Assembly: GCA_050575255.1 (NCBI GenBank)
Contig: JBNZDD010013701.1
Coordinates: forward strand, 6,364,084 to 6,428,083
Direction: 5' to 3'
Length of the DNA stretch: 64,000 nucleotides
From: Harriotta raleighana
Lineage: Eukaryota
Shown in pieces: positions 32,702 to 37,304 of the stretch. The notes beneath the pieces were generated by a model that saw only the letters and a list, made by a program, of their open reading frames with translations, was not told where the DNA came from and ran no database searches. The translations under genes were made by a program, and so were the position numbers. Numbering within the stretch: the first letter of the stretch is position 1; every line of letters begins with the position of its first letter.

Positions 32702-33860
32702 CTGTAAAACAAGAGTTACAATGTTGGATTGATGATCTACTTCACTTGCGGTTCAAATGTGAATAGATATAATGCGTGTCACTTTTATTCACCAGATTAC
32801 AGGTTAGCATGCACAATGCTCTCACACTAAATGCGCAATAATCAGAATTTGTAATCACATGAAGCTAAATTACAATTTTACACGGGATTTGAGAATGTTC
32901 ATTTAATATGTATCAACACCCAAAGAAATACATCCAAGTCAAAAAGGACATCTTAGATATAGTTATCGAAGGGAAAGATTTATACCCGTGACCCTCACTC
33001 TTGCTTTCAGTTTGATCCATCCATTGGGTTAATGGACCCAATGTGGTTTAGTTGTAGCCTGAGGTGAGAATAAGGCACCTCAACTCAGGCTTAAAACCAT
33101 AGTTTTTGTGCAATCCAGACTGAAATCCATTGACTAATACTCTAAAGTGAAAGGGAACAGGAATCCAGAGCATCCTTAAAAGATTTTAAATTAAGTTTGT
33201 GCTTACCCTGTAAACTTACCTAAAATCCCATAAAGAACCATCACCTAGAAATGAAGCATACTCTGTCCTCTAAAAGAACCCCTTTTAAAAATAGGTTAAA
33301 AAAACAAAATATAGCTGCAAGAGGCTTAGAGTTCCAACATGAATTATTCATCTTTTTAGCAGTGATGTAAAACTTTAGCTTTAGTGTGTGGGGTGTCTAT
33401 GTCATGATCAGAACACACTAGGCACAGTAGCCACAAGTAGCAGGTTTTACACACAATATGTATGCAGCCAAATTTACTATTAATCAGTTTGATGCATTTA
33501 AATGAGCACAAGAATGCCAGAAGAAAGGAATGGTTTCACTATTCAGTTTGAGATGTTTGTCAACAAATTGTGCAAGTTAATTGCTAAATGTTGTTTTAGT
33601 AAAGATTTGTAGCACTTTCCATTTTATGCATATAGGAAATTCTACAAGTAATTATTTCCACATTTGCTAATGTTAATAAAATTAGTCCTAACTTTACTAC
33701 AGAGCTGTGTGCCCGAGGATCACTTCAGCAATCACAGTGCTTAAGAGCATACAGAGTGTCAGCGCTGCATAACTGAGAGCAGGATTCAGCCACTGCTAGA
33801 AGCTACACTACATCAAACAGACCATACGATCACCCTGGTCTTCAGCATTCAATAACCAGG

Positions 33861-34850
33861 ATGGAGCGGCTCATCAGCAAACCGAATGAAGCCTTTGTGA
33901 CATTAGCAGAAAATGACCTATATGGAAAAGGTTCATTGGTACTCGCCTGCTCACTGAGAAAATACAGAACTACAAGGCAGCTGGTGATTCTCATCACTCC
34001 ACAAGTTTCCAGATCTATGAGGGCTGTGCTAGGAAGAATCTTTGATGAAATTCTATTAGTGGATGTACTGAAAAGTCAAGATTCAAGTAAGTTAATCCTA
34101 AAAAAAAGACCAGAACTCAGTCTCGTGTTGGCAAAATTGCACTGTTGGGATCTTACCCGTTATTCTAAATGTGTATTCATGGCTGCCGACACAATGGTGC
34201 TAATGAACATTGATGACCTTTTTGAAAGGGAGGAATTGTCTGCAGTACCAGATGACATTTGCACTGACTGTTTCAATACAGGGGTGTTTGTTTTTAATCC
34301 TTCCAGAGATACACATAAGGCACTTTTACAGCTTGCCATAAAGGGGAGCTTTGATGATGGGGATCAAGGCTTGTTGAATAGCTTCTTTAGCAATTGGGCA
34401 AAAACAGACATTTCTAAGCACTTGCCCTTCACTTACAACCTAAATTGCACTTCTGTCCATTTTCCAGCTATGAAACAGCAGGAGATGGCTATCAAAGTAA
34501 TTCACTTTCTTGACAAGACCAAACCATGGAACTATTCTTATGACCCCAGTACAAAACTTATGAAAGATCATGATTTATCTGTTGCTCATCCTGAATATAT
34601 ATACATGTGGTGGGATAACTTCACAGCATCAGTCTTGCCAATGCTTAAAGAACATGGCAATGAAGAAGCAACCAGTTCCATAAAAGAGGAAAAAATTACA
34701 GAGGCTTTAACACGGCTCTCCATCATTCCACGTACACTTAATGTCTCCTCAGAGGAACGTCGCCAGAGGTGGGAACAGGGTCAAGTTGATTTCATGGGAG
34801 CAGATTCTTTCCAGAATATCCAGAAGAAACTGGATGCTTACTTGAATTAA
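33861..34850 (+). CDS. GYG1: intronless glycogenin-1-like ORF (retrocopy) with substituted catalytic residues, nested antisense in SLC6A20 intron 10
   Basis: 329-aa uninterrupted [49 protein letters not shown]...KPW, C-terminal [14 protein letters not shown]; Kozak aggATGG. The symbol denotes the parent family; this is unlikely to be the canonical intron-containing ortholog. Confidence 0.9.
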
Positions 34851-35324
34851 AGGCACAATTGAAATTTTTAAAACCTGAATTCCAAGTGTGATTATGGAGG
34901 AGCTATTACATTGAAGCTCAGGATATGACTGGCTTGTAATTTGTTTCGTGCTCTTGTTTCAAATGCATATCACATGATATTTGTAGCTTTTTTAATGAAA
35001 ATCTGAGACTTAGATCATCATTTTCAAACTACACTGAAGTGTATTTCCACATAGAGCTTAAAGAAGCTCTGACTTCCTCAATCACTCTCAAACTTATTCA
35101 ACTACTGCAAAACCACGGCACTCAGTTTGATCCCCTGCTGCCATCACTCTCCCAAATTCAGCCACTGATCAAGACTGTTTTTCTTCACTACTGCCAGGAA
35201 CCCATCATCGGATTAGACAACAATTTCAGTATTTTTACAGCTGTTAAAGTTAAGTGTCATTGCAGGTGTAAATAATGTTAATCCTTCAGTATGTGGAAAC
35301 CTTGTACTTTTCACCCCAGATAAA

Positions 35325-35330
35325 AATAAA
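35325..35330 (+). promoter_or_regulatory. candidate polyadenylation signal of the glycogenin-like gene
   Basis: AATAAA about 475 nt after the TAA. Confidence 0.4.
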
Positions 35331-37304
35331 AAGTTACAAGCATATGGATTATTAGATTTAACTCAGTAAATAAGTTTACACCTGCAAATAAATGAGGGTC
35401 AATAGGTCGCAGTCCTACCAAGATGATTATTATTGTATACAATGTTTAAACATCAAGTTTGTAGCTGGGCAACTAGGTGGCAATTTCTATTTCAGAGAAT
35501 AGAAAGCAAGTTGAGAATAGGGATCCAGTTCTTATATCATTTGCTGGATCAGACTGTGTGGGAACCATTGGTAATATGTTATATTAATTATTACAGCCTT
35601 GCACAATCTAATAAATTTCTAATAACCTCTAAAGGAATACTGCACAAACTAAAATACTAAGAATTGTGGGCTGGTCAAACTCAAGATATTGTCCCAATGA
35701 AACTAACGCATTGTTGATATTTAGTTCTAATTTAGAGGTCAATACCATTATATCTCTCAATTACATTCAATCTTCAGTTTTGTAAGATTGTAAGTGCTCA
35801 CTTTGATTATTGATGCACTGCATCGTAGACATAGAAAGGGGATAAAGTAGGAGGAACAGAAGATTTACTGATAATTAGTTGCCAAGCAATGCCAACATTT
35901 TTGCTCAGGAAGAGCAGATTTCAAGGAAGCAAATATGAAGGGGAGTGTGGAAGCACAAAATAACCTCTGTATATAATTGTAATCTTCAATTCTATTCCTA
36001 AACATATATTCCACTAGTTCTTTTTAATTAACTTAACATCAACCATTTTATAAGAGCATCTATTTACAATAACCAGATGAAAATAACTAATTGATCCCTA
36101 ATCTTGTTGGGGTTCATTATTTTTATACTTGCCTCAAGACTCTTCACTTCGATAGAACCATTGGCAACTCCTTATCCCCCCATTCCCTCCCCCACCCTGT
36201 CCTCAGCTCGGGTCTGAAGCAGTAACTGTCCAGTGCCTTTGGAAGTCCTCCTGATGTAAAAGGCACCATGCAAATGTAATTTTGTTGTTGATGTCTCCAT
36301 CAATTCTATTAGCCTCCGGGCAGACAGGATTGCAAGCAGGATCTCCTCTGGACTGAACTAATTCCAAGGTGATGTGCTGGCTATGGAGTTTTAGAACAGT
36401 GAATCCTTTATGGTTCCTCAGCTAAGGGAAGTCTGCAGCAATCCAAACCAGCGCATGCTTCAGCAGGAATCGAGGGACAAGCCACTGGGCTTCCATTAAC
36501 ACTCCGAGCCAAAGTCCTAACCATCCTGAAAACCATTCTCCCCCATAAATAGTTGAGCTAATTTGCAACAAATTGGTAAATCCAAATTTACATTGCACTT
36601 TCCATGTTGGGGTAATGCCTTGGGGGGGGCAATTAGATGACTGATCACTGCAGACACACTTATCGTTTGCTTGGCTCTATAGCTTGATATCTCAGTAAAA
36701 TTATATGTTACAAGTGCTCTCATCTATTACAGCTTCAAAGACAGGCATAATTCTCCGAAGAGATCAACAGTGGATCACACTGTACTTGAAAAATATTTAT
36801 AGAATAAACTGACCAATTAAATTAAGTTGCAACATTCACAGAGGATAAGTGAATGAATTAACAAAAGCATGGATTTAGAATTGGTTTGGTCATTCTAAAC
36901 CTCTGTCTATTATCCCAGAGGTTCAGGCATAATAAGACTGAGGTTTGGAAATGATCCCTTTAGCCAATGCTCCAGATATGCCTTTTTAAAAAGGCATCAT
37001 TTAAAGAGTTATTGCAGTACTGGGCTCTTCATTTAGTTCTTAAATTTAACCTCTAGTAGTAAGTGGCAGATAGAGACGAGGAAGGCACCAAGTTTGCTTG
37101 TACTGTACTAAGTTTGTTGTTTTCAGCCAAGGCAGCAGCTTGAAGGCTTATAATTTATCACAGAGGTTCAGGAATAGGTTAAAAAAAACCCTAAGATTTC
37201 TGCTTCCAATTGCGAATACATCACCATGCTATTATTTATTCTGCTTTAATAAATGACAATAAAACCAAATAAATATAACTAAGCAAGATCGGATTTATAC
37301 ATAC

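Follow-up and report, generated by a model that had tools for sequence, protein, structure and literature searches.

What can a glycogenin still be kept for once its acceptor tyrosine has been deleted? This question is raised by a stretch of 64,000 nucleotides from the chimaera Harriotta raleighana (GenBank assembly GCA_050575255.1, contig JBNZDD010013701.1, positions 6,364,084 to 6,428,083 of the forward strand; hereafter the window), in which an intronless open reading frame (ORF) derived from the glycogenin gene GYG1 lies antisense in the last coding intron of SLC6A20. An initial annotation had described an old retroposition and a retained retrogene, which parent gene, divergence, orthologues and selection all support. 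It overlooked the loss of the priming tyrosine together with the preservation of the glycogen-synthase-binding tail, i.e. the probable pseudoenzyme state, and this alters the most likely role of the gene. Our analysis moderately favours a model according to which the copy is a chimaera GYG1 retrogene that would bind glycogen synthase without priming and damp glycogen synthesis.

An intronless glycogenin lacking the acceptor tyrosine

The sole ORF of at least 80 amino acids in 32000-38000 of the window is 33861..34850 (+ strand), encoding 329 amino acids plus stop. It starts at a new ATG six codons 5' of the parent's start, and the resulting N-terminal extension is common to the copy of Callorhinchus milii. 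The protein matches Pfam Glyco_transf_8 (PF01501; E 1.8e-14), and its best match in the Protein Data Bank (PDB) is human glycogenin-1 (E 6e-123). The GT8 domain with GT-A fold (residues about 9-262; 33885..34646, +) is predicted to keep its fold and carries altered active-site and acceptor-arm residues.

Numbering residues by the human isoform GN-1 via a 333-residue mammalian match, we identified a two-codon deletion at 34455..34460 (+) removing the acceptor Tyr195 and Ser196, with Tyr197 being replaced by His; both changes are shared with C. milii. A third species, organism B, shows no compensating insertion at this site, the gap coincides with the residue exchanged in PDB chain 7zbn_E (Y195F), and the copy contains no Tyr between its residues 193 and 224. 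Pro126-Gly127-Trp128 is replaced by Asp-Ile-Cys (34254..34262, +), as it is in C. milii. The DxD motif reads Ala-Ala-Asp (34182..34190, +), Asp102 being Ala here and in organism B and Asp in C. milii, and the codon of Val89 (34125..34127, +), corresponding to GYG1 Thr83, encodes Val here, Met in C. milii and Thr in organism B. The Asp160/Asp163 loop (34341..34367, +) has lost one residue and carries Gly161 to Asp here, has Gly161 and Asp163 replaced by Asn in C. milii and is reshuffled in-frame in organism B. Asp104, Asp160, His212 and Lys218 are retained in both the H. raleighana and the C. milii copy.

The altered positions are functionally characterised in glycogenin-1. The exchange Y195F abolishes autoglucosylation with the 4:4 complex still forming, residues 300-332 binding the synthase (PMC9188544). 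Asp102 is part of the Mn2+-binding DxD motif, and the variants Asp102His and Thr83Met are expressed and show no autoglucosylation (PMC5203857, PMC13671788), while Tyr197 touches the neighbouring subunit at its Trp128 and Asp160 (PMC12267440). Pro238, named in the latter study, turned out to be uninformative as a marker, since GYG1 of chimaeras and of sharks likewise has Ser there.

Comparison with other glycogenins shows how exceptional these changes are. Among the best 120 of 1590 protein matches, Tyr195, Tyr197, Trp128, Thr83 and Asp163 are kept in 119/119 other GYG1 matches and Asp102 in 118/119. Across 149 representatives of diverse glycogenins (the best 150 of 4116 matches without the orthologue), the DxD motif, the arm tyrosine, Trp128 and Asp163 are jointly kept in 143, five deviate and one is uncovered; loss of both the tyrosine and Trp128 occurs in none of the 149. 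Of the 135 sites conserved in 117 or more of the 119 matches, 118 lie in the GT domain, 20 of them changed in both copies, and 17 in the tail, 0 of them changed in both; the new residues Asp-Ile-Cys at 126-128 and Asn-Cys at 190-191 are identical in the two copies.

Misassembly, which the initial annotation had considered, was not found, and a sequencing error at Asp102 and Tyr195 was rejected: a contig of run X1 over 34132-34542, a span containing the altered motifs, shows 0 differences to the window, and a contig of organism B spans 33600-34888 as a single piece. Flank searches, in which common words are skipped, found neither 32702-33900 nor 34851-36100 a second time. The sequences place the loss of Tyr195, Tyr197 and Trp128 on a shared stem, further catalytic residues having been lost separately in each lineage, and they indicate a protein that in all likelihood is incapable of self-priming. 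With a GT8 fold predicted to be kept, catalytic residues lost and a sequence under selection, the copy is a probable pseudoenzyme.

Unusual motif states were also observed in other animals. In Limulus polyphemus XP_013774608.1 (P0283), named glycogenin-2-like, the first DxD Asp is absent and the arm tyrosine is kept, as is a tail resembling the synthase-binding one, suggesting a possible independent pseudo-glycogenin. A low-quality model of Sorex araneus GYG2 (P0264) has DxD and Asp163 altered and the tail kept, and a partial tardigrade glycogenin of Paramacrobiotus (P0285) shows no arm tyrosine.

Retroposition from GYG1 and orthologues in other chimaeras

The genome contains exactly three glycogenin loci: the ORF, a multi-exon GYG1 (contig C13729) and GYG2 (contig C13694). 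Six coding exons with AG/GT ends were found for GYG1 (G000:C13729:4132112-4143452), their joined frame is open and all motifs are intact; the short first exon and remnants of untranslated regions (UTRs) were looked for and not found. The intron-containing parent that the initial annotation had called for is thus present and intact, and the view of the ORF as a replacement of a lost parent is rejected. The contrast already drawn between an ORF without introns and a multi-exon GYG1 holds in detail, as the copy runs unbroken across five exon junctions of the parent. A 57-nt alternative exon at the parent locus is absent from the copy; together with the missing introns, this fits a spliced short-isoform GYG1 mRNA as the template.

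Copy and parent share 214/320 residues (about 67%), with 0.235 non-synonymous (dN) and about 1.7 synonymous (dS) substitutions per site, the latter near saturation. As first reported, neither a poly(A) tract nor a target-site duplication is visible. The host intron contains no poly(A) tract, runs of at least eight A occurring just at 34100-34107, within the ORF, and at 37181-37188. Neither ORF flank can be aligned to the flanks of the parent, and therefore a target-site duplication cannot be placed. Both hallmarks are expected to be erased at a dS of about 1.7, so that their absence is no argument against retroposition. The third glycogenin of this genome arose by retroposition, and the intact parent, the near-saturated dS and the orthologues in two other species agree with its proposed old age.

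In a tree of 25 GYG1 proteins, whose rows we selected from the protein matches and which contains no GYG2 row, the copies of H. raleighana and C. milii form one clade (support 100/100) that is sister to chimaera GYG1 with moderate support (92/85); the stem of the copies has a length of 0.37 and the tips of 0.09 and 0.08. The tail of the copy is 91% identical to that of GYG1 and 52% to that of GYG2. An assignment as GYG2 orthologue was rejected, the copy nesting in the GYG1 tree by chimaera GYG1, having a GYG1-like tail and existing next to a separate GYG2. The latter (G000:C13694:5232316-5277000, -) has intact motifs, and about 39 kb separate its last exon, the synthase-binding one, from the last exon identified for the catalytic domain.

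The orthologue of C. milii (XP_042187848.1 / A0A4W3IWJ3) is identical in 279/330 residues (85%) and uses the same new start. The contigs of this orthologue and of C. milii SLC6A20 are recorded at the identical length of 125,603,275 bases, GYG1a being located on one of 20,284,933 bases; the C. milii copy is on the same chromosome as SLC6A20, with nesting in the intron unseen there. Four of nine listed sequencing runs were compared with the window. For organism B, the runs X5 and X9 from two studies each yield one contig over 33600-34888 with about 90% identity, and in the case of X9 the contig becomes alignable to the intron again at 35854-36088. The copy is therefore not absent from close relatives, an outcome that would have spoken against the initial annotation.

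No shark, ray or bony-fish protein falls in the clade of the copy among the 120 best of 1590 protein matches, and no shark or ray orthologue is present among the best 150 representatives, an absence covering annotated proteins only and not shark intron DNA. Shark entries named glycogenin-1-like were rejected as orthologues, since they keep all motifs and group with ordinary GYG1. Chimaeras and sharks split roughly 420 million years ago, and C. milii diverged roughly 170 million years ago. The insertion most likely took place on the chimaera stem, later than the separation from sharks and earlier than the divergence of C. milii.

Selection on protein and reading frame

Comparison of organism B with the window, covering codons 1-194 minus 161-167, where two gaps cancel (187 of 329 codons), gave 28.3 synonymous changes in 129.5 sites and 19.7 non-synonymous changes in 431.5 sites, corresponding to a dN of 0.047, a dS of 0.259 and a dN/dS of 0.18 (binomial p 1.6e-7). 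Nine insertions or deletions (indels) of 1-2 bases were counted in 496 alignable bases of the flanks, predicting 17.9 for the ORF; the ORF of organism B has two, located 12 bases apart and restoring the frame (p 3e-6). A 329-codon frame remained free of stops after 0.26 neutral substitutions per site in just 0.05% of 2000 simulations, which argues against an open frame by chance. The copy thus appears, with high confidence from these sequence comparisons, to be a selected retrogene under purifying selection on protein and frame, and the earlier proposal of a retained retrogene whose frame stayed open is supported by the dN/dS, the deficit of indels and the orthologues.

Conservation extends upstream of the ORF. 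The 5' flank (33600..33860, +) shows 21 substitutions in 257 aligned bases to organism B compared to 28 of 130 synonymous sites differing (p 0.0003, biased as only alignable DNA enters). No ATG is present in the 190 bases 5' of the start, neither in the window nor in organism B; a TATA-like sequence is found at 33673, and bases 33701-33702 are an acceptor-like AG. This fits a candidate promoter with 5' UTR, or a 3' splice site with the acceptor at 33702, and is not proof of transcription. A search for sequencing runs containing the locus listed no RNA run. A scan with bacterial promoter models, which are not applicable to a vertebrate, gave nothing above chance. Downstream of the ORF, three AATAAA hexamers at 35325, 35387 and 35610 (35325..35615, +) are candidate poly(A) signals.

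The glycogen-synthase-binding tail

The C-terminal 34 residues (34746..34847, +) correspond to the helix-turn-helix binding glycogen synthase (GN34), a match based on 4qlb_G. This tail is identical to the C. milii copy in 34/34 residues and to the parent in 31/34, and between the two copies it is better kept than the GT domain (34/34 versus 212/254 identical; p 0.007). Gene conversion as the cause of the tail identity was rejected, the synonymous sites of the tail being saturated relative to the parent (proportion of synonymous differences 0.74). A structure model calculated with 131 sequences reached a mean predicted local distance difference test (pLDDT) score of 87 and shows a GT-A fold and a helix-turn-helix tail, with a template modelling (TM) score of 0.94 to glycogenin chains; a model calculated with 19 sequences (pLDDT 37) was discarded. 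Judged from its tail, the copy very probably binds glycogen synthase.

The linker preceding the tail (34665-34727 region) is identical in 26/32 residues between the copies and in 13/32 to the parent, with residues 274-287 modelled as a helix; it was remodelled and then conserved.

Host intron and neighbouring features

SLC6A20 is encoded on the minus strand, and ten of its coding exons were mapped in the window by tblastn using chondrichthyan SLC6A20/XTRP3 proteins. Exon 1 lies beyond the window, and the numbers 10 and 11 used here presume the usual layout of eleven exons. The host intron, the last coding intron (32702..37304, -), has its GT at 37304 and its AG at 32702, comprises 4603 nt and is in phase 0; these GT-AG limits confirm the antisense nesting between exons 10 and 11 exactly as initially placed. 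It is flanked by the penultimate coding exon 10 (37305..37470, -) and the last coding exon 11 (32567..32701, -, up to the TAA stop). The nearest relatives of both the ORF and SLC6A20 are C. milii proteins. The UniRef model A0A4W3IDL6 of C. milii SLC6A20 runs into the host intron and leaves exon 11 unused, its intron-derived tail still being alignable to 37192-37304 of the window.

In the intron, a non-coding block (35854..36088) of 235 bases can be aligned to organism B with 17 differences, its counterpart lying on the contig that also carries the ORF; in place of the preceding 965 bases, organism B has 543 dissimilar ones. A short interspersed repeat at 36129-36296 has nine matches, distributed over both strands, at the locus of the parent GYG1.

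SNRPD1 (Sm D1) exons are located on the plus strand at about 21450-21530, 22961-23155 and 24560-24640 (window 21450-24640). The gene is arranged tail-to-tail with SLC6A20, on the same strand as the retrogene and 9 kb upstream of it, and a read-through SNRPD1 transcript spliced to the AG at 33702 is a possible route of retrogene expression. Broken reverse-transcriptase fragments resembling long interspersed nuclear elements (LINEs) were noted at 17247-18915, 46637-47354 and 56695-57405, a weak RVT_1 match supporting the call for 17250-18059 and the others being judged by eye.

Discussion

The findings show a copy of a short-isoform GYG1 mRNA antisense in the last SLC6A20 intron, with parent and GYG2 staying intact, and fast change on the stem branch followed by conservation, the tail being kept completely. 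Transcribed from the conserved 5' flank, the copy may yield a folded, inert GT8 domain with tail that competes with GYG1 for the places of glycogenin on the synthase tetramer. The resulting complexes would be primerless and would not recruit PTG-PP1 via a glucan chain, leaving the synthase less active. The idea of damping is based on reports of such effects for GYG1-Y195F and GYG2 in human cells: activity of the synthase complex drops 10-fold with Y195F and 84-fold with GYG2, which is described as a suppressor (PMC12267440), and PTG was pulled down solely by glucosylated complexes (PMC9287172). Granting that the copy holds the synthase without priming, a net effect of damping rather than stabilising appears reasonably likely. 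We lean slightly toward a dedicated pseudo-glycogenin preserved solely because it holds the synthase, from a time before the living chimaera families separated.

Several observations weigh against this model. The tail is no better kept between the copies than between the corresponding parents (34/34 versus 31/34; p 0.24), and the GT domain diverges more quickly than that of the parent (212/254 versus 243/259 identical; p 0.0002), which also fits relaxed constraint. Region 34443-34888 of organism B has 39 differences and no gap, and a stop within it is possible. The C. milii copy retains DxD and His212, so that some transfer in trans is possible there; the role of Asp163 was reportedly described by Hurley 2005, and structures of rabbit Asp162 mutants exist. 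The fold model from 131 sequences leans on an alignment of active glycogenins. The cluster of the C. milii copy comprises two gene-model records and no complementary DNA, with two GenBank entries in the parent's cluster. GYG2 with intact motifs is also present in chimaeras, and a second damper seems redundant. Synthase complexed with the GYG1 tail alone has an activity similar to that of the full-length complex (PMC9287172); the tail alone is therefore not inhibitory, and damping hinges on competition for priming.

In one alternative, the copy is a non-priming stabiliser or targeting scaffold of glycogen synthase and no damper, its tail maintaining the solubility of the synthase and its inert domain positioning or spacing the complex, e.g. 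in a tissue low in GYG1. Human GYS1 is hard to make alone and soluble with just the GYG1 tail (PMC9287172), glycogen synthesis proceeds in the absence of glycogenin, the purpose of the interaction being termed unknown (PMC7046021), and it is tail and linker that are kept between the copies, the linker having departed from the parent. However, complexes with non-glucosylated glycogenin were measured to be less active (PMC12267440), and both GYG1 and GYG2 are available to stabilise the synthase. We consider this explanation unlikely, although it deserves more weight than the following ones.

The fast GT domain, changing at 2.7 times the parent's rate between the same two species (42/254 versus 16/259), could instead indicate a redundant copy under relaxed constraint that decays slowly, with residual selection acting against a misfolded or truncated product. 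Each lineage has lost different catalytic residues, and the decaying shrew GYG2 has a similar motif state. A dN/dS of 0.18, the exclusion of indels from the frame, the conserved new start and N-terminus, the invariant tail and the short tips after a long stem all speak against decay, and silencing or deleting an unneeded copy would cost nothing, making this scenario improbable.

Equally improbable is a GT8 domain with a new activity, either toward another acceptor or as a sugar- or nucleotide-binding module tethered to the synthase. It would account for 20 near-invariant sites having changed together on the stem and mostly been kept since, some of them identical in both copies, and for the retention of Asp104, Asp160, His212 and Lys218. 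In contrast, two of the three species have Ala for Asp102, and each of the three shows its own damage to the Asp160-Asp163 loop; this varied damage of the active site is unlike a conserved new active site.

That the locus mainly acts as an antisense transcript regulating SLC6A20, as the initial annotation had proposed, is very improbable: the opposite-strand nesting is real and the conserved 5' flank could drive transcription toward the upstream exons of the host, whereas it is the amino acids and the frame that are under selection, something an antisense function would not require, there is no overlap of the ORF with any host exon, and the candidate poly(A) signals are reached at least 1.7 kb before exon 10.

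Whether glycogenin matters as primer or as synthase partner is an open question, and GYG2 has only recently been recast as a suppressor (PMC12267440); patients and mice without glycogenin still make glycogen (PMC7046021). A gene that cannot prime, with a tail that has stayed the same in separate chimaera lineages, sets the partner role apart. If the reading as a dedicated pseudo-glycogenin is true, the copy would be a natural separation-of-function experiment, in which a primer-independent role of glycogenin is selected on its own, and residue changes behind human glycogen storage disease XV (GSD XV) would have become fixed in a regulator that is of use. Retroposition and nesting are ordinary by themselves. 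We found no published description of the copy in the literature searched, most subscription journals and supplements being outside its scope, so that a table entry could escape.

Comparison with known systems supports placing the copy next to glycogenin-1 (GYG1; GT8; 7zbn_E, 1ll2, 3t7m), with which it shares a GT8 domain and synthase-binding tail and whose short splice form it matches. In contrast to glycogenin-1, it is intronless, has a new start, lacks Tyr195 and Tyr197, carries Trp128 to Cys and Asp102 to Ala and resides at another locus. Its orthologue XP_042187848.1 of C. milii is already in the databases as glycogenin-1-like and annotated as an ordinary glycogenin glucosyltransferase, a name that conceals a probable pseudoenzyme. 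Human GYG2 is reported to bind the synthase by its tail, barely to autoglucosylate and to lower glycogen (Weng et al. 2025, PMC12267440), and it serves as the working model; it is an old multi-exon paralogue keeping DxD and acceptor tyrosine, whereas the copy is derived from GYG1 with the tyrosine deleted. GYG1-Y195F and the GSD XV alleles Asp102His and Thr83Met are altered at the same positions, the C. milii copy likewise having Met at 83; those are alleles of a sole GYG1, either made in the laboratory or recessive and disease-causing, whereas here the changes are fixed in an extra, selected gene. Nested vertebrate retrogenes (Carelli et al. 2016, PMC4772013) are, like the copy, derived from mRNA, intronless, at a new locus and preserved. 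Compared to these, the origin of the copy is ordinary, while the shift from enzyme to pseudoenzyme and its age in chimaeras are unusual.

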